Assembly (NCBI GenBank): GCA_963815195.1
Contig: CAWFGE010000023.1
Coordinates: forward strand, 448,001-512,000
Source: an uncultured Planctomycetaceae bacterium
GTDB taxonomy: Bacteria; Planctomycetota; Planctomycetia; Planctomycetales; Planctomycetaceae
Reading direction: 5' to 3'
DNA: 64,000 nt
Shown piece after piece: positions 2,932 to 51,216 of the stretch. The notes beneath the pieces were generated by a model. The model was given only the letters and a program-made list of their open reading frames with translations, did no database searches and was not told the origin of the DNA. The position numbers and the translations under genes are program-made. Numbering within the stretch: position 1 is the first letter of the stretch; every line of letters begins with the position of its first letter.

Positions 2932-4900
2932 TATTCATACTCCTGGTAGGATTTCTCTTCGACGATCCTGGACCCCAAGAGCGTGTTGATCTCCCGCTTG
3001 AGCTGCGCCCGGCGGTCGTTGGTGCGATACACGGCGCGGGCGAGTTCGATAAATTCCTCGCCAAAGTTCTGGTCGCGTTCGCAGTCGCGGATGTCGTCTT
3101 CGATGTCCCAGAGCTTCTGGTTGACTTCTCTAAGCGAGACGGTCAAAGCGTCCAACTCGGCCGAAGCCGGAAGATGCCGCCGCCGGGTTTCCTTCAGGAC
3201 TTCGAGTTCCGTGCGGACGTGGCGGAGCTTGTCGTCATCGGCGATCCGCTCCGCTTTGATTTCCAGAATCGTGATTTTGTCAACGAGTTCGCCCGGTGCG
3301 ATTTCGGCTTGGAGCGAAGGGATCTGAGTTTCTGATTTTTCTTTTAGGCCATAGAGTTTCGGCGCGGGGGCAGCGAGTTGGGTTTGCAGTTCGGCCGCCA
3401 TCTCGGCGAAGACGCCGTCCCAGTCGCCGAGCGCTTTCTGCCGAAACAGCCGCATCGTCGGATACCAGGGGCAGTCGCTGCGGTTTCTGAGCCAACGCCA
3501 ATCGGCCGCCGTCGACAGGGGCAGCCAGGCCGGCCGGCCCAATGCGCCTGCGAGATGATTGACCGACGTGTCGCAGGCGATGATCAAATCCAGATGCTGC
3601 ATGACGGCGGCGGTGTCCGTGAACGCTCCGCCCGACGCATCGAGGCCGTCCAGAATCACCACGGGCACGTCGGACTTCATCTCCTCGAGTTGCTCGGCTC
3701 CGTGATTTTTTTGCAGGCTGACCAGCGTGACGTGGGGCAGGTTCGCAATCGCGGCGAAATGTTTGAGGGGAATCGACCGGAGCTTGTCGCCGCGAAACGT
3801 GGGACTGCCCTGCCAACTGATGCCGATTTTGAAACCGTCCAGCGCATCGATTCTCGATTTCCAAAGCTCCACGTTCGCGGGATCGGGAAACACATAGGGC
3901 ACGGTCTTGGGGCAGTTCTCGCCGGTGATGTTCAAGAGGCCCGGAAGACTCAACAGCGGGATATGCAAGTCGAACGTGATCGCGCCTGGCTCATCGATGG
4001 GGAACCATTCATCGATGCCTTCGCAGCGGCTGAGGAGTTTTTGGAGCGGTTTTTGACAAGCGAAGACGATCCGCGCGCCTTGGGACTTGAGCAGCGGAAT
4101 CAGCCGGATGAATTGCAGCACATCGCCCATGCCCTGCTCGGTGTGGATGAGCAAGCCGCGGCCGTCCAGCGGCGAACCGTCCCATTGCGGGCGCGGATCG
4201 GCGGCCGTTGGGTCTGGCCGGTGCGGAACCGCCATTCGTATTCCACCCAGCCGTCGTGATACCGCTCCTCGGCCAGCCACGCGAGCGCCCGGTTGAAGTG
4301 CGCATGCGGGTTGCCCGGTTGGAGCCGGAGGGTGGCTTCATATTGCCGGAGGGCTTCGTCGCAGCGGCCGACCTGGTTAAAGCAAATTCCCAGATAGTTG
4401 TGCGCGAGCACCAGATCGGGCCGATAGGCGAGCGCTTTTTCGAGTGCGGGAATCGCATCGAGCTGCCGCTCTTCCTTGCAGGCCACCAGGCCGAGCGTTT
4501 GCCAGGCGAGGGCGTTGTCCGGCTGCTTTTCGACGACCGACTGCGCGAGTTCCCGCGCCTCGACCAGCCGGTTGAGTTCCCAGTGGATCAGGCTCAAATG
4601 CGCGCGGGCCGGCAGGTGCTCGGAATTGAGTTCGAGCGATTTGCGAAACGCGGTTTCGGCCTCGGCAATGCGGGCGGCATCGATCAGCGCCGAACCCAGC
4701 TCCGCATGGGCGTCGGCGGAAACGTCGCGGCGGCCCTGCTGCTCCAACAGCACCGCCATCCCATGCCAGGCCCCGATGTGGCGCTTCTCGGCGTCGAGCA
4801 CCTGCCGGTAAAGGGTTTCCGCTTCCGCAAGTTGCCCGTTTTGGTGATGCTGCCCCGCCGCCTGAAAAATTGCTTGCACGTTCGCGCCTGCAGAGTTCAC
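2931..4900 (-). CDS. TPR-repeat protein with GT9-like glycosyltransferase domain and C-terminal DUF6165-like domain; apparent frameshift near 4200
   Basis: ORF 4100..4900 has TPRs ending GWVEYEWRF; it continues in ORF 2931..4280 as PQWDG...EQGMGD...DTSVNHLAGALG...DWRWL...PWYPTMRLFRQ; the tail is GELVDKITILEIK...LWDIEDDIR...ARAVYRTNDRRA...EEKSY. Confidence 0.8.
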
Positions 4901-17529: not shown

Positions 17530-18045
17530 ATGACGCAAGACGACGCAAACGAATCACCCCCACCGCGCCGGCGTTCCTCGCGGCTTCGTCGGGGGTTATT
17601 TCTGGCCGGGGGATTGGGAATTCTCTTGGGAGTGATGGTCGTGGGGAATTGGTTCGCGGGAAAACCCGAAGGTCTGGGCGTGCAAAACGGCCGCCTGGCG
17701 AATTGCCCCGATTCGCCGAATTGCGTTTGCTCCCAGGACGAGCGTGAATCCCATTACGTGGAACCGTTCACGTTCGAAGGCGCTCCGCAGGCGGCGTTTG
17801 CGCGGTTGGCTCGAATCATAAAATCCCAGCCGCGCACGAAGATCGTCGAAGAGACCGACACGTATCTCCGCGTGGAAGTCACGACGCGCGTGCTCCGGTT
17901 TGTGGACGATGTGGAGTTTCTTTTGAAACCGGAAGAGCAGCGGATCCACGTCCGCTCCGCGTCGCGGGTCGGCCATTCCGACATGGGCGCCAACCGCGAC
18001 CGCGTGGAACATCTCCGCGAAGCCTTCAACAAGGCGGCGGAATAA
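17530..18045 (+). CDS. DUF1499-family protein
   Basis: LANCPDSPNCVCSQ, FVDDVEF, IHVRSASRVGHSDMGANRDRVE. Confidence 0.9.
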   Translation: MTQDDANESPPPRRRSSRLRRGLFLAGGLGILLGVMVVGNWFAGKPEGLGVQNGRLANCPDSPNCVCSQDERESHYVEPFTFEGAPQAAFARLARIIKSQPRTKIVEETDTYLRVEVTTRVLRFVDDVEFLLKPEEQRIHVRSASRVGHSDMGANRDRVEHLREAFNKAAE

Positions 18046-18046
18046 C

Positions 18047-21000
18047 CTACTCGGGAGCCATCGCCGCTTCGAGGTCTTCCCGCGTGTGCGACAGATCGCC
18101 TGGGACGGAATCACCCGCCAATTCGATGGCCCGGATGGCGGATTGGAACACCGGGTGGAGGTAGTGCTGGCGGATTTGCGGATTCCCACGCCGGGCGGCT
18201 TCCGTAAACAACAGCAGCCGCTTCGCGAGGATATCCAGTTCCGCCTCATCCGTGAGCGTCCCGGAATCGAAGACCTGTTTGATGACCAGGAGCAAGACTT
18301 CAATGTTCGTGCGGTTGACCTGCTCGGGCTTGATTTTGGCGATGACGCGATTGAGTTCCTCCCAAGCCTGGGCATCGTAGGTGTTGTCGGCTTTTCGGGA
18401 TAAGAGGGCCTGGACGGCTTTCTTCTCGATCTCGAACACCTTTTGCTGCTTCTGGAAGGTTTCCCGGGCGCTCGCCATTTTTTTCTCGAAGTCGGCTTCC
18501 AACGCGTTCGCCTGCGCGAGCCAGTGTTTGGGCGAGTTGGGGTCTTTTTCGGGGAGCGCATCGTCTTTGGGGCCGGCGAGCGCGAGCGCCAAGCTTTTCT
18601 TGTAATACAGCCGGGCCAGGTAGAACCACAAGGTTGCGCTGTTTTTAAAGCCTTGAAGCTCGGCTTGGGCGGCGGCTTCTCCCAGCGCCTCTGCGCTCGC
18701 TCGTAATTGGGCGGATCGCCGAAGAGGTACACGTCCGCCTGGCGTTCGTAGATGTTGGGCAGCCGGCTGCGGGCCTCGGCTTCTCTGCCGGAGAACCGCT
18801 CGCCGTCGTTGTCGTGCTCGATCGATTGGATCAAATCCTTATAGATCGCCAGCGCCACGGGCGGTTTATCGGCGGGATCGGTGCCGCCCCGCCCCTGGAA
18901 GTGGAGTGCCATCGCGGTGCCTTGCTTGTTGAACAGTATCGGCCGCCAGGCGAAGTCGTTCCCCTGTTTCCGGTTGGCCGCGCGGATCTTGGTCGCCTTC
19001 TCGAAGGAGTCGATCGCTTCCTGCATCTGCCAGCCGTCCACGCGGAGCCAGGCCTGCCGTTCCAGCATCTCCGCTTGGAGCGGGTGGCCCGTCGCGAGGT
19101 TCATCCGCTTCGCCCAAGCTTCGGCCGCATCGTCGCCGACGTGAAGCTGCTCGAAGGCCCGGTCCAGGTTTTCCAATTTCCGGTATTGGTCGGCCATCTG
19201 GCAATGCAAGCTGATTTGGAACAGCCCCGCTTCGGGAACCGCCGTTGCGGCCTCCTGGGCCCGGAGAATGCTTTTGGAATACTCCCGGCGATCGCCCAAA
19301 AACCGGCTGAAGTCCGACCGGGCCAAGGCCCCGAGCACCTTCTCCACCGGATCGGACTCGTCGTAGCTGTCGATGGCGGCTTCGTAGAGCTGCTCGGTGC
19401 GGACCGCGTGCTCGCTGTTGTTCGCGCAGAGATGATGCAGAATGCCCGCAAACAAATGCAGTTCGGTCGGTGACCAGTCGGCCTTCAATGCCTCGTCGTC
19501 CGCCTGGGACGAATCGCCGCCGAACGGCGGAAGGATTTTCAGCAAGTCCTCATCGTAGGAGGAGTGGGTTCGGTCGACAATCAGCACCAGCCCGGCATAA
19601 GAGCGTTCGCGCTCGGGGAGCCGGGATTCCAATTCCTGCGCGACGGTTTCCAGATCGTTCTGCACGGATTGAGTGTCGGCCGAGTTCAGGCGGGATTTGA
19701 AGTCTTCGAGCGAAATCCCGCCGATCTCGGTTTCGCCGCTGCGGATCGCCTGCATGAGCGCTTTGCGAAACCCTGGTCCGAACCACGGCGTTTCCTCGAA
19801 CCACCAATCGCCGTTGAGTCCCGGAAGCGCCCCCACCTGCGCGGCGAAGACCGGGTCTTGAGCGGGGCGGAACATCAGCCACATGGCCGACAAAAACACG
19901 ACCGCCAACACTCCGAGCGAAGCCTGCCATTTGCGGGACTTGAACCACGCCGGCCGCGGCGGTTGAATTTGGGAGTCGGAATCGATGTCGGTCGAGGATT
20001 CGTGCGGCCGGCGGGTTTTTTCGCCGCTGCCGTTTTCCGCCGGGGCGAACTCCTCGCGGAGTGGATCCGCATGCCCGCTGCCCAACAGGTCGTTGCTCGA
20101 AACATTCACGGTGGGCACCGGGGCGTGGCTGAAGGCCGTGCTCGTGACCGTGACTTTGGGAGCCGGGGTGTCGGCGTACCGCGGGACGTCCGTATGATCC
20201 GAAAGCGGCCCGAGGGCGTCGACGACTTCGTGCGGCGACGCGAACCGCTCCTTGAGCGCCTTCGCCATCATGCGGTCGATGATCGGCTGGAGTTTTTCGC
20301 CGTGCTCGTGCTCCACGCGCGGCACCGGCCCCAAGCGGTGGGCTTCCTGCTTCTTCAGCCAGTGCGTGTAGCTTTCGCCCCCATAGGGCGGCGTGCCGGT
20401 GACCAGGTAATACAGCGTGCAGCCCAGGCTGTAGATGTCAGACTGGATCGTGGCCCCCATCGGGTCTTCCCATTGCTCGGGGGCCATGAAGTCGATCGTG
20501 CCCATCACGCTGCCGCGCTTTGTCAGCCGCGACGCATTGGCCTCGGCTTGGAGCCGGGCGAGTCCGAAATCGAGAATCTTCACCGAGCCGGTTTGGTCGA
20601 TCATCAAGTTCGAAGGCTTGATGTCGCGGTGCACCAGGAAATGCTCGTGGGCGTGCTGCAAGCCTTCCGCGGCCTGCCGGATCAACTCGCACGCGACGCC
20701 CAGACGGCAGCCGTTCGTGGTGTTTGACCAGATGATCGAGATTGACGCCGTCGACGTATTCCATCACGAGATACAAGACGCCGTGCTCGCGGTTGGCTTC
20801 GTGAGCCCGCACGATGTTGGGATGGTTCAGCCGGCCCGCGAGTTCGATCTCCATCGAAAAGCGGTTGATGTCGTCCTCGTCGAAATCGCTCGGCAGGACC
20901 TTGATGGCCCGGTACTGTTTGAAAAGCTCGTGCCAGGCTTTATAAACCACGCCCATCCCGCCCCGGCCGCAGGCTTCGATGATCTCGTAAGGACCGATCC

Positions 21001-21424
21001 GCATCCGTCCCGCGGGCGTTTGGTTTTGCAAGTGCGCCGGCGAGGAACCGGACGAAGACTTCGCGGTGGGCGAAGGCGTGTGCTGCGTTTCGCCGGGCCG
21101 CGGCTCGTCCGGCTTCCGCCGGCGGACGCTCACCACCAACTCGGCGACGGCGGATGCGTGCTCCGGAAAGCGGAGCGTGTATTCCTCCGCCGTGAACGAG
21201 TCCCCCGCCTTCGCCCGGTAATCCAGTTCCAGCCCCAAGAGTTCTTCGAGCAGCCGGTCGCGATGATCCGCGGACACTTGGGACAGGGAGGTTTCGATTT
21301 TGGGCGATTCGCCGGCTTTGAGGAGGCTTTCAAAGGCCTCGCAAATGCGGTCGATGCGCACGCCGAGCGAGACCTCCGACGATGAAGGTATGGCGGGATG
21401 TCTGTCTTGCCCGTTGTCGTTCAC
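18047..21424 (-). CDS. Membrane Ser/Thr protein kinase with C-terminal helical/TPR-like region; apparent frameshifts near 20705 and 18695
   Basis: IDRICEAFE planctomycete-type N-terminus, GRGGMGVVY, AIKVL, HRDIKPSN, DFGLA, GTIDFMAPE, DIYSLG; TM segment; GTG start overlaps the ECF stop (GTGA). Confidence 0.88.
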
Positions 21425-22104
21425 TCCGCTTCCTCCGAGGCGGCTTTGTCGTCTTGATCGAATCCAGGGTTCCCCCATTCCACGAAACCCAATTCTTTTG
21501 CCCATTTGTCGCGAATCAATCGTAGTTTGCGTTCCACCGTGCGGGGCACGCATTCGAGGAAATCGGCGATCTCGTCGTTGGTGTAGCCCTCCAGCTTGTA
21601 CCGCGCGACCGCCACCAGCGACTCATCGTCCAAAACTTTGAACAATTGCTCCAAACCCTCGGCGGCGAGCGCGGCGAGTTCCGGCGTGGGCTCGTGGCCC
21701 AGCACCTGCCCGATGCCGCCCAGGTCGGCCTCGTCTTTCCCGGGTTTCAGAAAAATCGATTCCCCGCGGACCTGACCCTCGCCGCGTTTTTTCGCTTTTT
21801 GCCGCTTAAGCTCCGCATAGGCTTTACGGACGGTAATCGTCACCAGCAGCTTCCACAACTCCTGGCGGTCGCCCAGGCAGAACTGCCCGTCGGCGGCCCG
21901 TTTGTAAAAACTGTTCATGGCGGACAGGGCGACATCTTCCTCGTCCGCGGCCCGGCGGTTGATGCCGATTTGATCGAACTTCCGGCGGGCCAGACGCACC
22001 AAGCGGTCGAAATATTGCTCCCAAAGCAGATGAGCGGCGCGCTCGTCGCCTCCGCTGAGCTTTTCGATCCAAACCGTGACCTCGTCCGAACCCGGTCCAT
22101 CCAT
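21421..22104 (-). CDS. Planctomycete-type ECF sigma factor, coupled to the kinase
   Basis: VTVWIEKLSGGDERAAHLLWEQYFDRLVRLAR, DEEDVALSA, EGYTNDEIA...RTVERKLRLIR. Confidence 0.9.
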   Translation of the reverse strand: MDGPGSDEVTVWIEKLSGGDERAAHLLWEQYFDRLVRLARRKFDQIGINRRAADEEDVALSAMNSFYKRAADGQFCLGDRQELWKLLVTITVRKAYAELKRQKAKKRGEGQVRGESIFLKPGKDEADLGGIGQVLGHEPTPELAALAAEGLEQLFKVLDDESLVAVARYKLEGYTNDEIADFLECVPRTVERKLRLIRDKWAKELGFVEWGNPGFDQDDKAASEEAE

Positions 22105-22959: not shown

Positions 22960-24210
22960 TTAAGACAGGCCGGAATCGTCGAGGTTGGGAAGGTTGCCGT
23001 TGTCCCAATCGTTTTCGAGCGAGAACACCGAATCGCCTCCGGTCAGGTCTTCGCCGGTGCGGTTGAGGACGGCGGGGCAGACCACGGGCGATTTCTTGAC
23101 TTCGATGGTGAGCGTCGGCCATTCCTCGGCGGGAGTCATGAGTTCGATCCCCCGCTCGCTGAGCAGCACCGAATCCCCCAACACCGCCGGCCCCACGGAG
23201 GGATGCCAATAGAGTGCCATATGGGAATCGAGCCGGAACGTGCCGCCCGGCACCAGGGGGACTTCCGCCGGGCTGTAGCCGATGACCTCGGCCTGCGAAG
23301 CCAACTGCCATTCGCTGGCGTGGCCGAACTTCTCATAAATCCGAGCCACCCGCTCCCAGACGTCTTTGAGTTCCCAACCCGGCAGGGAGAAGTGCATGCC
23401 GGTGGCGTGAATCAGCGCGGCCGTCTGGTGGGCGGTTTGAATTTCCGCCGGGATCGAATCGAAGCACACGGTGCGCGAGGCCCCCACGCAAATTCCCCAC
23501 CGCCGGCCGATCGCGGAAATCGCGCAGGTGCGGTCGATCGGACGCCCGTCGAACGACCAATGCCGATACCGACCGCGCCGGCCTTCCGCGACCACCTGGA
23601 TCAATTCGGGGATGATGCGGTGCTTCATCATGCGGTGCGCGACTTCGGCGGCGACTTCCGCTTCGGTCGCTCCGCGGGGAAACCGCCGGGCGGTGGCTTC
23701 GACGGCATGCGCGACCGCTTTGCCCATCTCCCGCATCCGCGCGCATTCCAGTTCGGTCAGCGGCAGCCGGAGCTCCGCGAGTTCAGAAGAGACGTCGGTC
23801 ACCCCCGCCAGCGGAAAATCGCCCGCGACGTTTCGGCCGCGGACAATGTCTCCCATCAACTGCTGCCGGGGCTGATGCCAGGGCCGTTCCTTGAGTTGAA
23901 ACCCCAGGCCCGGCAATTCGTGATCGAACAACAGCGGCGAGTTGACGTTGTCCGTCACCAGCACCCGCGCGTCGGGCGTGATGAAAATCGCCGCCGCGCT
24001 TTGCGAGGAACCGCCCCGCGAGTTGTCGCCGCCCGCCGTAAACCAGGCGAAGTTCGCCGGCTGTTGGAGCAGAAGGGCATCGTAGCCGGTCCGCTCCAGA
24101 AACTCCGCCACAATCCGTTGCTTGGCGTCGACATCGCCCGCGCGGTCGGGATTCCGCCGCGCCGGGATCTCGGCTTCGGATTTGGAATGAGTCAGCGAAA
24201 CGGTTGACAT
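22960..24210 (-). CDS. M24 (creatinase/prolidase-fold) family protein lacking the metal ligands
   Basis: DALLLQQPANFAWFTAGG N-domain, TEAEVAA, GASRTV; the usual D/D/H/E/E ligands are not recognisable. Confidence 0.75.
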   Translation of the reverse strand: MSTVSLTHSKSEAEIPARRNPDRAGDVDAKQRIVAEFLERTGYDALLLQQPANFAWFTAGGDNSRGGSSQSAAAIFITPDARVLVTDNVNSPLLFDHELPGLGFQLKERPWHQPRQQLMGDIVRGRNVAGDFPLAGVTDVSSELAELRLPLTELECARMREMGKAVAHAVEATARRFPRGATEAEVAAEVAHRMMKHRIIPELIQVVAEGRRGRYRHWSFDGRPIDRTCAISAIGRRWGICVGASRTVCFDSIPAEIQTAHQTAALIHATGMHFSLPGWELKDVWERVARIYEKFGHASEWQLASQAEVIGYSPAEVPLVPGGTFRLDSHMALYWHPSVGPAVLGDSVLLSERGIELMTPAEEWPTLTIEVKKSPVVCPAVLNRTGEDLTGGDSVFSLENDWDNGNLPNLDDSGLS

Positions 24211-24372
24211 GAGCAATCCTCGATGGTGGCCCGACGGTCAGCAATAAAGGAACTCCGGAAACCAAGCGTTCTCTTGTGAGACAATAACCGTCGCACTACT
24301 TTAAGTTTACCACGCCGCCCACCACAACCAAGCACTTCCGTCAAAAACTTTCGCGCCCAAGGGACCCTCCCA

Positions 24373-25752: not shown

Positions 25753-28744
25753 CTATGTCACGGCGGGTTCATTTCGCGCGCGGAGGGCGGCGTAGAGGAA
25801 CTCGTCGATCGCTCCTTTCCAGAGTTCGTTGATATTGTTCGCCGTCACCCCAGTGCGGGCGTCGCGGACCGAAGGCCTGGGCCGCAGCGTGTATTTGCGG
25901 ATGATGTCTTCCACCTGCACGGCTTCCTGCGATTCGGGATCCTCGCCGCCGGCCTCGAGCATTTGCCGATAGGCGAGTTCCGAATGCAATAAGTCTTCCA
26001 CGAGCGGGGCGGCCTCTTCGGGAGAAAGATCGCTCGTCGCCGAGATGCTGGTGGCGGACGGGCGGTGCGTGGCCGTCACCTTGGATCGGTAGCGTTTGCA
26101 CCGGAGACCCCGGCCGTGCGTTTTTTGCTTTTCGAGGGAAACCTCGGACGGCGGGATGTCCGAATCGTCGCTGTCGGCCACCGGCAGCACCCGGACTTTG
26201 ACGAACTTCGACTTCTTCGCGTGCTTGGGCGTCCGCCCGTAAACCATCTCATGCATCCCCGCTTCGCCGCGGAGCATCCCGAAGATCGCCACGCCTTCGA
26301 CCAACAGCGTCAGCTGCCGCGTCTGCTTGGGCGAGAAGAGTTCCTCATCGATAATCTTCGCCTCGAAACCTTTGAGCTGCGCCCAATGGATGTACATGTC
26401 AGCGACGTTTCCCACGAGATCGTCCGGGGCATCGTCATCGACGGTCGAAATCGCCACGAACGCATCGCTGCGGTCCAGTTCGCTTTGACACTCCAGGCTG
26501 AACCGCACGAGGTCGGCGTGCTGTTGGCTGTGGGCCGCCTTCTCCGCGACGGCCGCGAGCTTGTCTGCGTCGCCTTGGCTCTTCGCCGACTCAAACTGCC
26601 GCACCAATTCCTCCGTGCGCTTCCGCACGCGGGCGACGGCTTCGAGCAGGCGTTCCAGCCGATAGATTTCCCCCAGCACGTCGCGGGCTGCTTCGGGATC
26701 GTCCCAGAAATCGACCTCGGTCGTCCGATGCAAGAGGTCGGTCTTTTGCTGCTCGAGCTTGCGGTCGGCACATTGCTGCTCCAGGTTCGCGATCGCGGTT
26801 TGCAGGAGGGTGATGCGTTCTTCGATCTGGCCGGGCTTGAGCTTGCTCTTGGTGCCGTGGATCGGATCGACGACCTGCACGCCCTTGGCGATGGATTCCT
26901 GTTTTCGGCTCAGGCGGTCCTGCACGATCCGCACCGTGATCCCGTTCCCCGCCGGCAACAAACGCAACAGCGACTGCCGGTTTTCGCCGGTCATATGCAC
27001 AATCTGCCGGGCGATGGGCAGGAGCGCAAATTTCTCGACGGCCCGCTTTAAGGGTCTGGCTCCATAGATCGGACTGAAACCTTCGCGGACGAGAATGTCG
27101 ATCACGCCGGGGTCCACATCGACCCGCAATTCCCGCCGGGTGATGCCGCTGCGGAGAAGCACCTGCCCCAGTTCCCGCTGGGCCAGAATCCGCACGTGCT
27201 CGCGCTCCAAAGGCCTGAAGGAAACAATGCGGTCGATGCGGTTCAAAAACTCCGGCCGGAAGAAACTTTCCATCGCCCGCACCGATTCCTCCTGCAGGCT
27301 GTTTTCGGGCGGCGTATGGAAGCCCAGGGGCGGAGCATCGATCAAATCGCTGCCCAGGTTCGAGGTCATAATGATGATCGTCTGCGTGAAGTTCGTGGTC
27401 CGGCCCGCGGGATCGGACAGCCGCCCGTCGTCGAACACCTGCAAAAGAAGATCGAAAATATTGCTATGGGCTTTTTCGATCTCATCCAACAGGATCACCG
27501 AGAACGGTTGCTGGCGAACCCGGCTGAGCAGGCTGCCCATGTGGAGCGGCGAATCCGCCCGCGCCGGGGCTGCCGATGAATTTCTCGAACGAGTGAAAAT
27601 CTTTGAACTCGGACATGTCGAAGCGGATCATGCGGTCGCTCGAGCCGAAGATGAACTCCGCGAGCGCTTTCGCGAGTTCCGTCTTCCCCACGCCCGTCGG
27701 CCCGACGAAAAACAGCACGCCCATTGGCTTTTCGGGATCGGTCAGGCCGGCTTTGATGAGCGTGATCAAATCGATCACCGATTCCACCGCCTGCGGCTGG
27801 CCGATGACTCGCGACTCGAAAAACTGTCGGACCTCGGGGAGCTTGAGCGGTTGCGAATCGTCCAACAACCGTCCCGGAATGCCGGTGAAGGATTCCAGCG
27901 TCTGCACCACGTCTTCGTGCTGGATTTCCGTCTCGAATTCCGCCGGCAGCCGTTCTCCGTTGGTGGCGGCGGCGGTGTGGTTCAATTTCAAATTGACGAG
28001 TTGCTCGAGGAGTTTGATCGCTCCGCCGGGCGCAGCGAGGCCGGGGAAATAGAGTTCGCCGAAGTCCAGAATCGCGGTCAGCGTGTTTTCCGGGAAGATC
28101 AGCTTGCGGCCGGATTCCAACAGGGCCCGCTCGGCGATGGCGTCGGCGGAGCGGCGAACGATCTGGCGGACGTCCTGCTCGGACGGTTCCTCGATGCGGA
28201 ACACCGTGAAGAGCTTGTTGAACGAAGGATGGCGTTCGATCCCGCTGCGGAAGGAATCCGGCGTGCATTCGCCGATCAGCGTCACGTCGCCGTTCTCGAC
28301 GAACGACGCCAGGAACGCGGCCATGTTCTCGTCCGACTTGGAATGCTTCCCCGCGTCGGGGAGTTGATGGATGTCGGTGAAATACACGGCGATCGACAAC
28401 GGCCGCTGGGCGAAGCCGGCCAGTTCCTGCACGCGGGTCTGCCATTCGCCGATGTACGAGGTGCCGGCCATCAACATGGAGGTCGAGGTCTCGAGCACGA
28501 GCCAGGGTTTTCGTTCCCGCTGAGCGACCCGGCGGAAGAGTTCGTACAAGATGGCCGACTTCCCGCCACCCGATGGGCCGACCAATAAAAACGAATTGTG
28601 CTTGGCGTGGTCGAGGTGGCGTTCGAGGAGTTCAAGCTCCGCATCGCGAAAATAAGCCCGCGGCCCGCGCGAATCCTGCAAACGGGTCGAGAGCACGTTT
28701 CCATAAGGTTCCAGCGTGCGGATCAGATCGGGATCGAAAGACAT
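25753..28744 (-). CDS. ClpA/ClpB-like double AAA+ ATPase fused to a C-terminal degenerate RF2-like release-factor domain; apparent frameshift near 27555
   Basis: D1: GPSGGGKS, AGTSYIGEWQTR, IGECT; D2: FVGPTGVGKTELAKALA, RFDMSEF, LLDEIEKAH, IIMTSNLG, FRPEFLNRID, YGARPLKR; then DFWDDPE...MYIHWA...GEAGMH...THRPS...IRKY...VRDARTG...GAIDEFL. Confidence 0.85.
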
Positions 28745-28879
28745 GGCGGGAAGAGTCAAGGGGCAAAGGCCACAGAGGAGCAAAGACCACAAAGTGACAA
28801 ACGGGAAGCGATCGAACAACACCGAATGAGTATATCACATCGAATGTTTGGCCGCGTGTCATTGCAAAAACCGCCCAAC

Positions 28880-32056: not shown

Positions 32057-32193
32057 TATTTTGTCACAGCCGAAGACGCTCGGAACCCTTTTACTGCTAT
32101 AAGTTTACAGTTCTTCACTTTGTTCATTGACGAAGCCTCCGGTGGAACGTGGAGGGTTTGTCAATGAGGGACATCGATCGGAAAGAAGGCATT

Positions 32194-33001
32194 ATGGACC
32201 GCCCAACCGCTCTCGACCTGCTGGAAGTCGTTCGCCCGGATGCGGACGATCTCCACGATCTGGTATTCGAGGAGGCTTTGGCGTATCTGGAAACGGATCC
32301 CGAGGCGGGCGAAGAGTTTGCGCCGGCGGGACCAGGATCGGCAAATCGCCGAGGCGATGCAAGAGGTCCCGGTGCCTGGGGATCTCAAGCAGCGTTTGGT
32401 CGCGGCCCTCGAAGAGAATCCGGTCCGCGTGCCCGAATCCTCCCCCGGGGAAAAATCTCCGGTGCGGCGGCGATGGATGCTCTCGGCTTTGGTGGTGCTC
32501 GCGAGCAGTCTTTTGGCGGCGGTGGGGATCTGGCTGTTCTACGAACCGGAACCTCGATTGCTCACGGTGCAAGAGTTGGAAAACTCCGCGCCCTACACCG
32601 AGGCCGAGTTCGCCCGGCTCCAGGCGTTCTCCGGGCCGTTTGAACCGCGCCTGCCGGAAGGTCTGTGGGTGATGGATCGGCGGTTTCATTTTTCCTCTGC
32701 GAAGGGCTTCGCCCCGAATCCGGAAGGGGCCGACCGTGTCGCGGTTTACGAGTTCCATTTTCGCGATCCCCGGCAGCCGCGGGCCGGCGTTTTGAGGGGC
32801 GTGTTGCTCGTTTTGCCGAAGTCGGGACTCGAAGCGGCTCCCGAAAGCCAGTCGTTTTTCGACGGCACCTACACCACGACCCAAGCCCAGCCCCGCGTGG
32901 CCATCCGCGCGTGGACGGAGCGGGACCGCGTGTATGTCTGCCTGGTGCCGATGGCCGACTTCGATGCGCTCAGCCGGGCTTTGGAATCCACCCACGCATA
33001 G
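32194..33001 (+). CDS. Putative membrane anti-sigma factor; apparent frameshift near 32325
   Basis: Follows the ECF gene; DRQIAEAMQEVPVPGDLKQRL motif, single TM helix, extracytoplasmic domain. Confidence 0.65.
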
Positions 33002-33090
33002 CCAAACTCGCCGGGGCAATTTCCGCAAAATCCCCCCAAGCGTTCGTGATGGTCAGGATTTCGGGCGAGATTTTGCCGTGCCATAAATCC

Positions 33091-34654
33091 GTGTCTGGCC
33101 GTTTTCTATGGCGCGAACTGGGTAGAGTGTGTAAAGTAGGCAATCCTGTCGTCCGCGATGTGCGGGGGCGAGTTGATTTCACTTCCAGAGGAGGGATTGC
33201 GATGCAGGAACCCCGAGTTGCCAAAGAGGTTTATATCGAGTCAATGCGGTCGGAGCTTGAGGGCTTGTTGGGCGAAGTGATGGAGGCCGTGAATGCGGCG
33301 CCGGGCGGTCGCGTGATTGCCGACAGTGAGGAGCAAGTGCGGCAGTTGATGCACGAGTTTCGCCGCCGGGCTTACGAGCGGGCCGTGCAGATGCGAGCGG
33401 ACTCAGCCGAGTCCGCTTTTCCCCCCTCCGGAGAACGAAGCGACGGGAACACCCATGCGCAACAAAGGTCGCCAGAAGCACACCGTGATGACGGTCAACG
33501 GGCGGGTTAAGCTTCGCCGGATTCGCTGGCAACCAGCCGGCGGCGGCAGCGTGACGCCGCTGGATGAGTGGTTGGACGAAGCCTGCCAGCAGTTCACGCA
33601 AGGCGTCGTCGAATTGGCCTGCCGATTGAACCGTTGCGAAAGCAGTTTTCTGGAACTGTCCGTGACCCTGAAGCGTGCGGCGGGGCTTTCGATCGGCAAG
33701 GAAACGCTCCGGCAATTGATCGAAGCCGAAGGCCAAACGGTCTTGGAACAAACGCGTCGCAACGAACTGAGGCCCGACTGGGAGGCGTCGGATTGCCAAA
33801 CCCCTGAGGGCGAAACTCGCGTGTATTTCGGTTGTGACGGCGTGAAGGTTCCCGTGATCACGGAGACGGAAAAGAAGCAGCGGCGGGCTCAGGTCGTCGA
33901 GAAACGGAAAGAACGCAAATCCGAGGGCCGCTCTCTCAATCCGTTGGAACGATTGAAGCCGGGCGCCGACGGCCCGTACAAGGAATTTCGTCTGGTGCAG
34001 TTTTATTCGGAAGACCAGGAAAACCGCTGGATCAGCGTCAGCCGGGGCGACCATGAAGTGGTCGGGCGGGTGATGCGCCGGGACGCCTCGCGGATTCAGT
34101 TGGATCAGGCGGACGCTTCGATCGGGATTTATGACGGGGCCGTGTGGATCGATCGCCAAGCGGAGAAACAAGGCCTGCGGTTGACCGCCCGCGGACTCGA
34201 CTTCTGGCATCTTCGGGATTACGCGCAAAAGACGCGGCGGTCGCTTTACGGAGACGACGAAGCCGGCAAAAGCTGGCTGGACGAATTGATGCACACCTTC
34301 AAGCATGAAGGTTACGAAACAGCGTGGGATCAGCTCACGACCCAGCGGGCCCAACTGGAAAACGAAACGAAAAAGCAAGCCCTGGATGGACTCTTGCACT
34401 ACATGGCCGAACGCAGCCATCTGATTAAATACCCCGAGTTCCGCGCCAACGGGTGGCAAATCGGCAGCGGTCCAACCGAAGCCCAATGCCGCACGACCAC
34501 CAGCCGCATCAAAGGCAAAGGCCGCCGCTGGGATCCCGACAACGCCCTGGCCGTAATGGCCTTGGAAGCCCTCCACCAAAGCCACGCCTGGGACTCTCAC
34601 TGGAACCTCAATTGACCAACCAACTTAACCCCGCCAGAATTTCCGGCCACACAC
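33091..34654 (+). mobile_element. ISKra4-like (Mutator-type DDE) insertion sequence, copy 1, 1564 bp
   Basis: Ends GTGTCTGGCCG / CGGCCACACAC; same ends, length and protein as the inverted copy at 55161-56724; no target duplication. Confidence 0.9.
33202..34615 (+). CDS. ISKra4-like transposase in two frames (orfA from 33202, orfB 33455-34615) joined at TTTTCCCCCC
   Basis: GCDGV (D), YDGAVWI (D), LDFWH, IGSGPTEAQC (E), RIKGKGRRW. Confidence 0.88.
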
Positions 34655-34668
34655 ACCGCAGAAGCGCC

Positions 34669-34800
34669 CGGGTGCCACTGGCAGCTTGCTGCCAGTGTTT
34701 TTACAATCCAAACACACACCGGGAAAACCGTCCGTAAGCCAATTCCGCGAAGCCACTGGCAACAAGTTGCCAGTGGCACCCGGCGCCAGTGGCACCCGGC
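34669..34800. repeat. REP pair (GGGTGCCACTGGC...GCCAGTG family) with a partial third copy
   Basis: CGGGTGCCACTGGCAGCTTGCTGCCAGTG at 34669-34697; inverted copy 34754-34782; GCCAGTGGCACCCGGC repeated at 34785-34800. Confidence 0.85.
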
Positions 34801-35177
34801 GTCCCGCACTGCTTCCTGTTCCCCGGTGGGGTCTTGGTCATCCGACAGGTCTCCCTGCTTTATGTATCTGGCCTTCGGACCATTCCGCCTCCAACCACCT
34901 GACTGCTCCCGCCATCGCTTTGACACGCGGGCACCGCCCGCAGGGTGGTCCCTCAGCGTGGCGGGCTTCCCAAAACAGGTCTGGGCTTCGCCGTTCCCTA
35001 GCAGGCTCGCCAGACAGCCCGGCCGAATCGAGTTCACTTGCGTTACGGAATGGTCGTTCTCCTCCGGTTGTTTCCCACCCCCTGTCGTCAGGACGCAGTG
35101 ACCATCAGATACAGGCCGGAGAGCGTCTGCCTGAAGGGGACTTCCACCTCTCGAACCAGATACACTCACAGGCACAC
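34801..35177 (-). ncRNA. 5' fragment (roughly domain I) of a group II intron; no RT ORF or domains V/VI
   Basis: Minus strand starts GTGTGCC (GUGYG), then GGTGGAAGTCC...GGGGTGGGAAACAACCGGAGG...GAACTCGATTCGGCCGG...GGCGAGCCTGCTAG...GGCGAAGCCC...GGGAGACCTG, matching my recollection of bacterial group II intron 5' regions. Confidence 0.8.
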
Positions 35178-35316
35178 TAGGGTCCGCTGTGCGGACCATT
35201 GGGTTTCTTGGAATTCTACGAATGGCTTGCAGAATCGCGCGCCCGTTGTTGCAATGATTTTGGGCCACGAAGTGAAAATGGTCCGCACAGCAGTCTAGGG
35301 TCCGCATGCGCGGACC
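35178..35316. repeat. REP cluster (TAGGGTCCGCTGTGCGGACC family)
   Basis: Hairpin copy at 35178-35197, partial inverted copy at 35280-35291, variant copy at 35296-35316. Confidence 0.8.
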
Positions 35317-35366
35317 ACCAATCCTCGTCAGCCAAATCGAAACAGAATTCGCATCAAGGTTCAGGC

Positions 35367-36809
35367 ATGTTACACCCACCGTTCAATCGGCGCGAGATGT
35401 TGTCCCGCAGCGGCATGGGGCTGGGATCGCTGGCGTTCGCCCAGTTGCTCCAGCAGACGGGAAACCTCGTTCAAAGTCAAAAGGCGGACGCGGGACTCCG
35501 CGGGCCCAACCCGCTGGCTCCCAAGCCCGCCCAGTTTCCGTCGCGGGTCAAGCACGTCATTCATCTCTTCATGAACGGCGGCCCATCGCATGTCGACACC
35601 TTCGATCCCAAGCCGATGTTGCAAAAGTACGCGGGGAAGAAATTGCCGAACGGGAATCTCCGCACCGAGCGCCCCACCGGAGCCGCTTTCCCTTCGCCGT
35701 TCAAGTTTCAAAAATATGGCCAGAGCGGCATCGAAGTCAGCGAGCTTTTCCCGCACGTGGGGAAGTGCGTGGACGACCTGGCGGTGATTCGTTCGATGCA
35801 CGCCGACGTCCCCAACCACGAGCCGTCGCTGTTGTTGATGAACTGCGGCGAAGCCCGCTTGATCCGGCCGAGCCTGGGATCCTGGCTCACATATGGCTTG
35901 GGCAGCGAGAACCAAAACCTGCCGGCGTTTATCGCGATGTGTCCTGGCGGCTATCCGATCCAGGAATCGCAAAACTGGCAGTCGGGTTTCTTGCCGGGGA
36001 TTTACCAGGGGACTTATATTGACACGAAGCACACCGAGATCGACAAGCTCATCGCCCACATCAAAAACGACCGCGTCTCGAGAGCCGACCAACGCCGGCA
36101 GTTGGATTTGCTGTTGGCCCTCAACGTGCGGCATCAAGACCAGCGGCCGAACGATCCCGAACTCGACGCCCGCATTCAATCCTTCGAACTCGCCTACCGC
36201 ATGCAGCAAGAGGCAGCCGAGGCCTTCGATGTCAGCCGCGAACCGAAGCACATTCAGGAGATGTACGGTCCCGGTACGCAGGCTCGGCAGATTCTGATCG
36301 CCCGCCGGCTCGTTGAGCGCGGCGTTCGCTTTGTGCAGGTTTGGCACGGCCAGGGCCAGCCTTGGGACAGCCACGACGACATCGAAGTCAACCACCGCCG
36401 GCTGGCCCGCGAATGCGACCAGGCGATCGGGGCCTTGATCACGGATCTCAAACAGCGCGGGATGCTCGAAGAGACTTTGATTATCTGGGGCGGCGAGTTC
36501 GGCCGCACTCCCGCCGTCGAATTGCCCAAGAAAGGCAGCAACCAGGGCAAAGTCAACGGCCGGGACCACAACCACTACGGCTTCACGATGTGGCTCGCCG
36601 GCGGCGGGGTAAAAGCCGGGACGGTTTACGGGGCCACCGACGAGTTCGGCTTCAAAGCTGTGGAAAACCGCGTGCACGTCCACGATCTGCACGCGACGAT
36701 TCTCCGGCTGATCGGCTTCGATCACGAACGCTTCACCTACCGCTATGCCGGCCGCGACTTCCGTCTGACCGATGTCCACGGCCGAATTATCGACGACCTG
36801 ATCGCGTAG
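35367..36809 (+). CDS. DUF1501-family protein (Tat-like signal)
   Basis: NRREML, FMNGGPSHVDTFDPKP, ARRLVERGVRFVQ, WGGEFGRTP, GRDHN, HVHDLHATIL. Confidence 0.93.
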   Translation: MLHPPFNRREMLSRSGMGLGSLAFAQLLQQTGNLVQSQKADAGLRGPNPLAPKPAQFPSRVKHVIHLFMNGGPSHVDTFDPKPMLQKYAGKKLPNGNLRTERPTGAAFPSPFKFQKYGQSGIEVSELFPHVGKCVDDLAVIRSMHADVPNHEPSLLLMNCGEARLIRPSLGSWLTYGLGSENQNLPAFIAMCPGGYPIQESQNWQSGFLPGIYQGTYIDTKHTEIDKLIAHIKNDRVSRADQRRQLDLLLALNVRHQDQRPNDPELDARIQSFELAYRMQQEAAEAFDVSREPKHIQEMYGPGTQARQILIARRLVERGVRFVQVWHGQGQPWDSHDDIEVNHRRLARECDQAIGALITDLKQRGMLEETLIIWGGEFGRTPAVELPKKGSNQGKVNGRDHNHYGFTMWLAGGGVKAGTVYGATDEFGFKAVENRVHVHDLHATILRLIGFDHERFTYRYAGRDFRLTDVHGRIIDDLIA

Positions 36810-38009: not shown

Positions 38010-38284
38010 TTTCGAGTCAACGACTCGTTTGAGCCCAAGCGTTCGACCCGCCTGAAACCCGCCTGCCCCACGCTGGAGTCCGTCTGCCCCATGTAATCTC
38101 CCTACCGTAACTCGGCCGTGCGACGGGCCATCGCACGTTATTCCCGCCCGTGAATCCCGCTTTGTCTTCCTTCGGATTGTTCCCGCGATTGGACTGTTTT
38201 CCGCGTGCCTTTTGCGGTCTTGGTCCGCGCCCCGATTGTTTTCCCATTCCTGTTTTGATTTTTTTGTTTCGAGGAGTCGAAATC

Positions 38285-39304
38285 ATGTTGCCGACGCGAT
38301 TGAATCGGTCCGCCCGCTTACGGGGCTTCACGTTGATCGAGCTTTTAGTGGTGATTGCGATCATCGCCATCTTGATTGCCTTGTTATTGCCCGCGGTGCA
38401 GCAAGCCCGCGAAGCCGCCCGCCGCACCGAGTGCAAGAACCAGCTCAAGCAGCTCGGCTTGGCGCTCCACAACTATCACGATTCCAACCTGACGTTTCCG
38501 ATGGGGACGCGTTATCCCATCAGCGCGCCGAATTGGCGGGTGGGCATTTTGCCTTATCTCGATCAGGCCGCGCTCTACAACAACGTGGACATCAATTCGC
38601 AAGCGACCATTGGCGGGTTTTCGAGCAAGCGCGAAGACAGCGGCAGCTACGGCTACGGGACCGGCCGGAATGCCGTGCTCAAGGGGCTCGCTGTGCCCAA
38701 TTGGAATTGCCCCTCCAGCCCCAACTCCAAAAACGCCAGCGGACAGTCCCCGACATATAACAATGCCGAGCTCGGGCAGACGATGGATTACGTCGGCATC
38801 GCGGGCGCCACGCCCGACCCCGGCGGGAACACGGGCGTGTGTTCCGGGACGACCGGTTACGGCGGGATCTTCTGCGAGAACGGCATGCTGTTCCCCAACG
38901 GCAACACGCGGATCCGCGACGTGACGGACGGGGCCTCGAATACGATGATCGTCGGCGAGCAATCGGGACGCGTGGGCGGCACGAAAGACATCCGCGCAAA
39001 CTACCACGGCGGTTGGGCGGGTTTTACGGTCACGCAGCGGCCGGCTTCCATGACCGGTTCCCCGTGGGGGTCCGCCACCACGACGCTCAGGTATCCCATC
39101 AATGCGGGCCTCTCGGTTTGCGTCGGTGGCTCGGGCTGCGACGCGACGTACGACGGCAACACCGTGCTCAACTCGTTTCACCCGGGAGGAACTCAAGTGC
39201 TACTCGTCGACGGCTCGGTGCATTTCCTCTCGGAAAACATGAACCTCAACACCTTCCGCAGCCTCGGCGCCCGAAACGACGGCCAGGTCGTCGGCCAGTT
39301 TTGA
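38285..39304 (+). CDS. DUF1559 prepilin-type N-methylation protein with H-X9-DG motif
   Basis: GFTLIELLVVIAIIAILIALLLPAVQQAREAARR, DVTDGASNT, HPGGTQVLLVDGSV. Confidence 0.95.
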   Translation: MLPTRLNRSARLRGFTLIELLVVIAIIAILIALLLPAVQQAREAARRTECKNQLKQLGLALHNYHDSNLTFPMGTRYPISAPNWRVGILPYLDQAALYNNVDINSQATIGGFSSKREDSGSYGYGTGRNAVLKGLAVPNWNCPSSPNSKNASGQSPTYNNAELGQTMDYVGIAGATPDPGGNTGVCSGTTGYGGIFCENGMLFPNGNTRIRDVTDGASNTMIVGEQSGRVGGTKDIRANYHGGWAGFTVTQRPASMTGSPWGSATTTLRYPINAGLSVCVGGSGCDATYDGNTVLNSFHPGGTQVLLVDGSVHFLSENMNLNTFRSLGARNDGQVVGQF

Positions 39305-50004: not shown

Positions 50005-51084
50005 TTAGTTCTTCCCGGCAGCGCCGCCGCCCAGGCGTTCCTGGCGGTCGAACTCCAACAGGGCTTCGATGAGTTCGTCGAGATTGCCCTGCATGATTTG
50101 ATCGAGCTTGTACAGCGTGAGGTTGATGCGGTGGTCGGTCACCCGGCCTTGGGGGAAATTGTAGGTGCGGATTCGTTGGCTGCGGTCGCCGGAGCCGATC
50201 AGCGTCCGCCGGGCGTCGGCGCGGGCGGCGGCGGCTTCGCGCTGCTTGGCTTCCAGGACCCGGCTTCTTAAAATCCGCATCGCGCGGGCTTTGTTTTTGT
50301 GCTGGCTTTTTTCGTCCTGGCATTTGACGACCGTGCCCGTTGGCAGGTGCGTGATGCGCACCGCGGATTCGGTCTTGTTCACTTTTTGCCCGCCCGGACC
50401 GCCCGCCCGCATCGTGTCGATCTGCAAATCCTCTTCGCGGATCTCCACATCGACTTCGCTGGCTTCGGGGAGCACGGCCACGGTCGCGGCGCTTGTGTGA
50501 ATCCGCCCCTGCGTTTCGGTTTCGGGAACCCGCTGGACGCGGTGGCCGCCGCTCTCGAATTGCAGCTCGTGAAAGGCCCCCTCGCCGGTGACGGAAAACG
50601 TGATTTCCTTGTAGCCGCCCATTTCGGAGGGGCTGACGTCCATCACCTCCATTTTCCAGCCGCGTTCTTCGATAAAGCGCTTATACATCTCGAACAGATC
50701 GCCGGCGAAGATGCCCGCCTCATCGCCGCCGGTGCCCGCGCGGATTTCCATAATCAGGCCGCCGTAGGTGATCGCATCCCCCGCCGCCGCGAGGTCTTCG
50801 AGATCGGTCTTCAGCTTCTCCTGCTTTTCGAGAAGCTCGTCGAGCTCGGCCTGGGCGTAGGCCTTGGCGGCGGGGTCGGTTTCCTCTTCGAGCATCATCT
50901 GGGCGGCTTCGATGTCCGCCTCGCGGTTGTAGTAGTCCCGCACCGCGTGGGCGACCTTTTGCAAGCCCCCGTATTCCCGCTGGACGGCGATCATGCGGTC
51001 GGTGTTCGAGAGGACTTCCGGATCCTGGAGCTGTTTTTCCAACTCCTGAAAGCGTTTGTATTTGGAGTCGAGACTGGGAAACAT
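50005..51084 (-). CDS. prfA: Peptide chain release factor 1
   Basis: [25 protein letters not shown] (PxT motif), [22 protein letters not shown]. Confidence 0.97.
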
Positions 51085-51216
51085 GGGAAAAACCAAAATC
51101 GAGAGACGAATGCGAGGGCCGAAACAAAACACGGGGCCAGCGCAAGCCCATCCGTGACTCTCTCACCGATTTTGCCATCGGCGGGCGGAGTCCGGCTTCG
51201 GGCACCTCGAACGCCT

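Follow-up and report, generated by a model that had tools for sequence, protein, structure and literature searches.

The stretch of DNA analysed here (hereafter the window) comprises 64,000 nucleotides from an uncultured Planctomycetaceae bacterium (NCBI GenBank assembly GCA_963815195.1, contig CAWFGE010000023.1, positions 448,001 to 512,000) and carries on its minus strand a gene in which a Clp-type double AAA+ ATPase is followed, in the same polypeptide, by a catalytically dead module related to release factor 2 (RF2). The gene is distributed over two overlapping open reading frames (ORFs), 27482..28822 (446 amino acids) and 25753..27540 (595 amino acids), and a deficit of 2 bases separates them. 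Its start methionine at 28744 corresponds to the start of the orthologues in two genomes of the same genus (G002 and G003). The product is one polypeptide of about 997 residues consisting of a D1 module, a D2 module, a D2-small domain, a linker of about 55 residues and a four-domain RF2 fold, and it has no N-domain.

On the first ORF Pfam places AAA/AAA_16 and positions 1-57 of AAA_2, and the second ORF carries the remainder of AAA_2 (E 1.8e-29), ClpB_D2-small (E 9.4e-10) and PCRF (E 4.3e-15). A preliminary description, made from the letters of the gene, had read it as a Clp motor joined to RF2 and had named four Pfam families by which this could be checked; AAA_2, ClpB_D2-small and PCRF were matched, and the fourth, RF-1 (PF00472), gave no match on the RF module. 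Every motif listed in that description is present in the translation and was assigned coordinates (Table 1), and D2 and the RF part are indeed joined in a single frame, the junction lying within the ORF 25753..27540.

Sequence and predicted structure of the two parts

The C-terminal part follows RF2 from end to end, as had been proposed. Residues 246-587 of the second ORF align with positions 4-353 of the 353 positions of the NCBIfam prfB model TIGR00020 (E 1.3e-38, 132.9 bits), a match well outside the range of chance, and RF1 models of the same collection match the module more weakly (2e-15 vs 1.3e-38). The curated cut-off of TIGR00020, 370 bits, is reached neither by the window protein nor by the intact G002 orthologue (135.4 bits). 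The last 355 residues were modelled with AlphaFold on the basis of 29 family sequences, with a predicted local distance difference test score (pLDDT) of 91 and a predicted template modelling score (pTM) of 0.88. The best match of this model in the PDB, found with Foldseek, is free Escherichia coli RF2 (1gqe; E 3e-22, TMq 0.73, 367 aligned columns), and the PDB chains listed at ranks 1-50 are all class-I release factors. Since the TM score to ribosome-bound, open RF2 structures is only about 0.43, against 0.73 to 1gqe, the model adopts the compact form of free RF2.

The module and RF2 (PrfB) share the same four domains in the same order, as well as the motifs FWDD, MY..WA..GF, GE.G.H, R.Y and D.RTG..LD.F. 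They differ in the loops by which a release factor works. With the RF2 of the same genome (L007), which retains SPF and GGQ, as the reference, all 18 fusion sequences show a 2-residue deletion removing SPF and a 4-residue deletion removing GGQ; GGT(E/D) is gone from what we take to be the alpha5 tip, and 6 residues are deleted from what we take to be the switch loop, both names being those of the structural literature on release factors. The same losses occur in 14/14 sequences of a further alignment (A3), so that the absence of SPF and GGQ, reported in the preliminary description for the window protein, holds for every family member aligned. Given the loss of these four elements, the RF part cannot work as a factor triggered by a stop codon; its RF2 scaffold is complete but is predicted to be able neither to decode nor to hydrolyse. 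In contrast to RF2, the module also sits behind a 640-residue ATPase, in a genome that keeps a separate, normal RF2.

The loop that stands in place of GGQ is basic: it holds 2-6 lysines or arginines (K/R) per 13 residues in 14/14 diverse members, against 1 in the RF1 and RF2 of the genome, which suggests contact with RNA or another nucleic acid. Among deeper-branching members, some have kept W-G in the switch loop, as in RF2, the motif G-E-x-G-x-H-R is kept, and one protein (P0073) has GGGGDGT at the alpha5 tip. Such remnants suggest stepwise decay from a working RF2 and are a hint of descent from an RF2 that was active on the ribosome.

Canonical factors are present alongside the fusion. The prfA gene of the window, which encodes RF1 (50005..51132, minus strand), has the tripeptide PET in place of PxT and retains GGQ, the latter in agreement with the preliminary description. 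A frame of 158 amino acids elsewhere in the genome (G000:C12:129980-130354, plus strand) matches the GGQ-domain family RF-1 with 66.5 bits and, judged by its size, probably encodes a rescue factor of the ArfB type; the genome would thus be already equipped with a GGQ-bearing rescue factor. The fusion coexists with normal RF1 and RF2, an ArfB-like factor, ClpB, ClpC and ClpP.

The ATPase part resembles ClpA and ClpC in having two AAA modules, a D2 of the AAA_2 type followed by D2-small, an intact D2 site and a D1 pore-loop tyrosine. The match to the ClpA model is continuous (positions 166-719 of 734) and leaves room neither for an N-domain nor for a ClpB-type M-domain; no Clp_N match was found with Pfam, and the protein opens directly at the D1 lead-in. 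The missing Clp N-domain had already been pointed out, and the ClpA model is indeed matched only from positions 166-190 onward. Scores fall far under the equivalog cut-offs (340 vs 993 for ClpA). The best stretch of the ClpB model TIGR03346, positions 526-836 of 853, covers D2 only and gives 362.7 bits against a cut-off of 1232.1; the coiled-coil M-domain of the ClpB disaggregase is absent.

The two ATPase modules are unequal. D1 has an intact Walker A and the pore-loop tyrosine, but its Walker B reads VYFTDIH, compared with ILFIDELH in the ClpC of the genome, as the preliminary description had recognized in calling it degenerate, and the pair N-K (SFNKLF) occupies what we take to be the arginine-finger position. 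D1 probably binds ATP but does not hydrolyse it, and with both the acidic pair of Walker B and the arginine-finger pair lost only D2 looks hydrolytic. In D2 all elements of the ATPase site are intact (Walker A, Walker B, sensor-1 Asn, FRPEFLNRID and GARPLKR). A variable stretch stands in place of the GYVG pore loop and is devoid of aromatic residues in the window protein; of 78 long family proteins, only 23 have an aromatic residue nearby, and its place is not conserved. The earlier label of a double motor thus stands as regards the two AAA modules, but not as regards two working motors, D1 looking hydrolysis-dead and D2 lacking the GYVG aromatic.

A further loop, which the preliminary description does not mention, is of a type known from ClpP-dependent unfoldases. 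Between sensor 1 and FRPEF, G-F (rarely G-L or G-Y) is found in all 71 loops that could be delimited among the 78 long proteins, and in a 29-sequence alignment (A1) Gly475 is invariant and Phe476 at least 90% conserved. This xGF loop presumably occupies the position of the ClpP-docking loop IGF/IGL/LGF; its counterpart in the ClpC of the genome is FGL, and the ClpB of the genome has nothing comparable. In a model of the full-length G002 orthologue (pLDDT 83.9, pTM 0.51) the loop falls below a pLDDT of 50 (residues 471-481), disorder that is expected of a docking loop; the linker forms a beta hairpin, a short helix and a beta pair in the same model. The universal occurrence of the xGF loop suggests coupling to ClpP. 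When the D2 part (residues 300-620 of A1) was modelled, without controls, together with two copies of the genome's own ClpP, the predicted complex scored 0.14 and 0.04 (mark 0.32). Unlike ClpA and ClpC, the fusion protein has no N-domain, no D1 Walker B or arginine fingers and no D2 GYVG, and it bears a C-terminal extension of 400 residues.

Elsewhere in the genome lie three tandem Clp-like paralogues (L002-L004, G000:C15:713928-724315). In each of them Walker B of D1 looks dead, D2 is without GYVG and an xGF loop is present (LGF, GFGF and VGF); the three may represent a related class of Clp ATPases that is as yet unexplored. One of them, L003, is extended at the C-terminus by about 330 residues, which were considered as a possible RF-like remnant and rejected (hhalign against A3, probability 1.8%).

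Table 1. Features of the fusion gene and their positions in the window
Feature	Position	Strand	Basis or remark
Complete fusion gene, Clp-type double AAA+ ATPase and dead RF2	25753..28744	-	about 997 codons once the 2-base deficit is bridged
First reading-frame piece: D1 module and start of D2, to the pore-loop position	27482..28744	-	ORF list, Pfam, NCBIfam
D1 Walker A GPSGGGKS, intact	28556..28579	-	
D1 pore-loop position SYIGEW, tyrosine retained	28442..28459	-	aligned by eye with own ClpC (AGTKYRGQFEE)
D1 Walker B position VYFTDIH	28367..28387	-	T-D; D-E in ILFIDELH of own ClpC
D2 Walker A GPTGVGKT	27680..27703	-	
D2 pore-loop-1 position, without aromatic	27541..27583	-	contains the 2-base deficit (~27559/27560)
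Second reading-frame piece: remaining D2, D2-small, linker, RF2-like domains 1-4	25753..27540	-	ORF list, Pfam, NCBIfam
D2 Walker B LLDEIEKAH, intact	27466..27492	-	
xGF loop PPLGFHTPP	27307..27333	-	presumed ClpP-docking loop position of ClpC and ClpA
D2 sensor-2 motif GARPLKR	27043..27063	-	in D2-small domain
Linker of ~55 residues, D2-small to RF domain 1	26821..26985	-	rough boundaries, from G002 orthologue model residues 593-636
RF2-like module, four domains, compact in the model	25756..26820	-	AlphaFold, Foldseek, TIGR00020
RF motif VDFWDDP	26695..26715	-	
RF motif DMYIHWAQLKGF	26365..26400	-	
RF motif GEAGMHE	26248..26268	-	
SPF anticodon-loop position YGRTPKH, without SPF	26221..26241	-	2 residues shorter than own RF2
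RF motif FVKVRVLP	26182..26205	-	
GGQ-loop position HGRGLRCKRYRSK, no Gln	26080..26118	-	4 residues shorter than own RF2; 6/13 residues K/R
RF motif VTATHRPS	26056..26079	-	
Shortened switch-loop region, just ahead of IIRKY	25891..25923	-	6 residues fewer than own RF2
RF motif IIRKY	25891..25905	-	
RF motif VRDARTG	25849..25869	-	
RF motif GAIDEFL	25795..25815	-	

Distribution and variants of the family

The architecture recurs across genomes, and the family is conserved and the fusion real. It is present in 4/4 genomes of the genus and was found in none of 37 other sampled genomes of the same family and class. In a search among proteins of 548-1745 amino acids, 32/32 clusters carry PCRF together with AAA_2 and D2-small; named members include an 'AAA family ATPase' of the cultured Thalassoroseus pseudoceratinae and another of a Pirellulaceae metagenome-assembled genome (MAG). 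The RF part alone, compared with 1.84 billion representatives, gave 1649 matches at E <= 1e-3, and among the best 150 of these, 55 are at least 850 amino acids long with the RF part C-terminal. GGQ at the GGQ loop was found in none of these 55 long representatives. One apparent GGQ-keeping long fusion (P0147) was rejected; its letters GGQ stand at the position of the SPF loop.

Forms of 1200-1400 amino acids add N-terminal HEAT repeats (P0055, P0065) or TPR repeats (P0099), and some proteins of about 345 amino acids consist of PCRF only. The nearest relatives of the module also include stand-alone GGQ-less RF2-like proteins of 300-499 amino acids (P0053, P0067 and 15 others), which may be fragments of fusions from short contigs or free-standing dead paralogues of RF2.

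In a sample of the phylum, 22/400 other genomes match in a frame of at least 979 amino acids (E <= 1e-25), including 10/11 genomes of one family (f29). Records are labelled as Planctomycetaceae, Pirellulaceae, Planctomycetia and Planctomycetota MAGs, and three are MAGs labelled Verrucomicrobiales/Akkermansia. A locus search with a 5-sequence alignment (A4) returned 12 loci, of which one (L073, Anaerococcus-labelled, 24% identity) may be an ordinary RF2. A locus in a Verrucomicrobiales MAG (L070) encodes a fusion of 961 amino acids. In a sample of the phylum to which a Verrucomicrobiales MAG (G435) belongs, 0/250 further genomes match at E <= 1e-28, and one family cluster, from a MAG, is labelled Chloroflexota.

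No conserved neighbour genes were found among the window and five further loci (L050-L054), that is 6 of 13 loci, L055-L061 lying outside the comparison; upstream genes are common only to two genomes of one genus (G058 and G092). PADLOC returned no specific model for the protein and only partial generic AAA+ matches on D2 (DolB, 4e-27, residues 302-466; PDC-M37B). Database names are 'AAA family ATPase' or 'ClpA/ClpC', and one JGI record reads 'ClpA/protein subunit release factor A'.

Possible functions of the fusion protein

The fusion may connect a machine that unfolds proteins with the ribosome or with RNA. The preliminary description had suggested two hypothetical roles, in which the RF scaffold would dock an unfoldase on stalled ribosomes or would mimic a release factor. 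We favour, with a rough probability of 40%, a ClpP-coupled unfoldase that would be docked on ribosomes by its dead RF2 modules. The protein would form a hexamer of the Clp type, and the RF2 modules would serve as docking adaptors that use the shape of RF2 to enter the A-site and factor-binding region of the ribosome or to bind there, without decoding of a stop codon and without hydrolysis of peptidyl-tRNA. The D2 ring would be the source of ATP-driven work, the D1 tyrosine loops would hold a ribosome-associated protein, and the xGF loops would link the ring to ClpP1P2, by which the extracted protein could be degraded. Docking on ribosomes is preferred because the RF module is the only candidate for specificity, the short form of the window having no N-terminal client-binding domain, and because the module combines a shape that fits the A site and a basic loop with the xGF loop of the ATPase.

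Several observations weigh against this proposal. All four RF2 elements that couple to the decoding and peptidyl-transferase centres are lost, and together with the compact form of the model this loss means that the domain may no longer bind ribosomes. The RF module is located at the D2, ClpP-proximal end of the ring, and substrates enter at D1, so that it is badly placed for delivery. D2 lacks the pore-loop aromatic that canonical partners of ClpP use for translocation. Finally, none of the 6 loci has a conserved neighbour, be it ClpP, tmRNA or a ribosomal gene, that points to translation.

A narrower form of the proposal, which we advance tentatively, regards the fusion as a bacterial, single-chain counterpart of Dom34-ABCE1 and Vms1-Cdc48, which serve ribosome rescue in eukaryotes and archaea; dead RF2 would dock a ClpP-coupled hexamer at the A site of a stalled or vacant ribosome, and pulling driven by ATP would remove and degrade a bound protein or split the ribosome. 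Dom34/Pelota-ABCE1 and Vms1-Cdc48 likewise pair a release factor paralogue with an ATPase doing mechanical work on stalled ribosomes, although the likeness is an analogy only. Dom34 is described as catalytically dead, and Vms1 as binding the double-ring AAA+ protein Cdc48 (PMC6514570). They differ from the fusion in that the aeRF1 fold is unrelated to that of RF2, the partners are separate polypeptides and Vms1 is catalytically active. If this counterpart is real, ribosome quality control in bacteria would gain a new branch, which occurs in Planctomycetota and is scattered over other phyla.

The main rival explanation, held to be somewhat less likely, is an exaptation off the ribosome. The dead RF2 would then be an RNA-binding or ribonucleoprotein-binding domain that brings RNA-bound clients to the ring or tethers the ring to transcripts. 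The K/R-rich loop in place of the GGQ loop in 14/14 sequences, the loss of the decoding and switch elements and the compact model are all consistent with such a role. The four-domain scaffold is nevertheless kept, domain 1 included, down to 22-30% identity, which is more than an RNA patch seems to need; domain 1 of RF2 faces the factor-binding site. The switch-loop W-G retained in deeper branches and the lack of a conserved neighbour in the 6 loci also speak against it. A precedent is provided by PrfB3 of land-plant chloroplasts, a protein derived from RF2 that has lost SPF and GGQ, has a role outside termination and is described as binding the petB 3' untranslated region (PMC5897788). In a comparison of features, the closest ESM-Atlas cluster carries the name 'PrfB3, chloroplastic' (score 0.92), which is a lead only. 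PrfB3 is a stand-alone plant protein and the present protein a bacterial fusion with an ATPase, and the two were compared by the ESM-Atlas feature score only. Should the RNA-binding explanation hold, bacteria would have in this family a parallel to the PrfB3 of plants.

It is improbable that the RF2 module binds neither RNA nor the ribosome and is purely structural or regulatory, acting in autoinhibition, in oligomerisation or as a lever moved by D2, with the ring remodelling ordinary protein clients. All catalytic and decoding loops are lost, the module stands at the C-terminal, ClpP-proximal end, the N-terminal HEAT or TPR repeats of longer relatives could be the actual client binders, and the pTM of 0.51 of the full-length model means that no fixed arrangement is predicted. 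However, the short form in the window has no N-terminal client-binding domain, which makes the RF module its only candidate for specificity, and the conserved basic loop suggests contact with nucleic acid. The ratio of nonsynonymous to synonymous substitution rates (dN/dS) of 0.11-0.17 in the RF part indicates a constrained surface, but not its purpose.

Quite improbable is a conflict or stress system, in which a sporadically inherited ATPase of defence or stress response would, under phage attack or starvation, block or inspect ribosomes in the manner of an A-site plug reset by ATP. The patchy spread would fit (22/400 other genomes of the phylum, 10/11 in f29, 0/250 in the phylum of G435), the Chloroflexota-labelled member hints at transfer, and for the non-catalytic baeRF-1 families, entry into the A site as negative regulators has been proposed (PMC6514570). 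Yet PADLOC matches only generic AAA+ on D2, the 6 loci show neither conserved partner genes nor a mobile-element context, and the presence in 4/4 genomes of the genus together with strong purifying selection fits a housekeeping accessory.

Whichever role applies, two known modules stand in a new combination, and the family is apparently undescribed to judge from the records and literature. No description of a Clp-RF fusion was found in the full-text literature, subscription journals being outside this coverage. To our knowledge, known bacterial rescue systems (tmRNA-SmpB, ArfA-RF2, ArfB, PrfH-RtcB and RqcH/RqcP) do not include an AAA+ unfoldase tied to an A-site factor; this pairing is regarded as eukaryotic and archaeal. 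A Clp ATPase joined to a complete dead RF2 is thus a concrete, clonable candidate for a link between unfoldase and ribosome in bacteria. It also widens the Clp/Hsp100 catalogue by a predicted hydrolysis-dead ring with a gripping tyrosine and a live ring without it, which has instead a docking loop of the ClpP type. Section 2.4 of a broad survey of release factors names as bacterial RF peptidyl-hydrolases only RF1, RF2, ArfB and PrfH (PMC6514570). Like the fusion family, ArfB and PrfH are specialised derivatives of this lineage, but they have kept the catalytic Gln and lost domains according to the same source, whereas the fusion family has kept all domains and lost the Gln.

The frame break and other features of the window

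The indel placed at about 27555 by the preliminary description is real in the window, which is 2 bases short at about 27559/27560 relative to the G002 and G003 orthologues, within the D2 pore-loop codons. The orthologues are intact single ORFs of 997 (G002) and 998 (G003) amino acids. In a sister species (G001) a deficit of 1 base lies inside the same ten or so bases (L009, about 3237-3290, minus strand). The pore-loop codons at the break also differ by substitutions in all four genomes of the genus; this stretch is either hard to sequence or truly fast-evolving.

A contig of 297 bases from a metagenome run (X1) spans 27353-27647 with 0 other differences and 2 extra bases behind 27559. These 2 bases yield a single frame of 997 codons with a loop length equal to that of G002 and G003. 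Between the window genome (G000) and G001, dN/dS is 0.056 for the N part, 0.049 for the rest of D2 and 0.142 for the RF part, at a dS of 0.33-0.47; in other genome pairs it ranges from 0.04 to 0.17. Values for the RF part lie at 0.11-0.17. Both gene halves are under purifying selection, and the low values on either side of the break between two 'broken' genomes mean that both have been kept under it. The ClpC gene of the genome is also split, into ORFs of 465 and 334 amino acids just before the D2 Walker A (L006, G000:C20:29894-33475), as is the second of two tandem ClpP genes, at profile position ~102-105 (G000:C13:548856-549396), which supports an assembly prone to indels. The frame break in the window is thus most likely an assembly error and not biology, on account of the X1 contig, the restored 997-codon frame, the dN/dS values and the other split genes of the assembly. 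With its low depth of 3.9 the X1 contig is a single weak witness, and this, as well as the different 1-base deficit of G001 at the same place, weighs against an assembly error.

Programmed frameshifting, for which prfB is the precedent, was rejected: the window needs a shift of +1/-2 and G001 one of -1/+2, which makes a shared recoding signal unlikely, and the X1 contig has an intact frame. A decaying pseudogene, or a functional break giving two polypeptides or relying on such frameshifting, is very improbable: the window and G001 do have deficits within the same ten or so bases, and all four genomes of the genus keep the ATG that opens the downstream piece, but decay is at odds with dN/dS values of 0.05-0.14 on both sides of the break at a dS of 0.33-0.47 and with the other essential-type genes broken in the same assembly, no common recoding signal serves both genomes, a functional split would separate Walker A from Walker B within one AAA+ domain, and the frame is restored in X1.

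A Ser/Thr kinase gene in the window is likewise split over two overlapping ORFs (17596-21553, minus strand), with positions 1-95 of the Pkinase profile on 20438-21553 and positions 104-253 on 17596-20685, probably by another assembly indel. Four further ORFs of 418, 278, 473 and 260 amino acids (22960-24216 and 32192-35379, minus strand) have no Pfam match at E <= 1e-10. Genes typical of planctomycetes are found at 35199-36809 and 38150-39304, where the window carries DUF1501 and DUF1559 genes.

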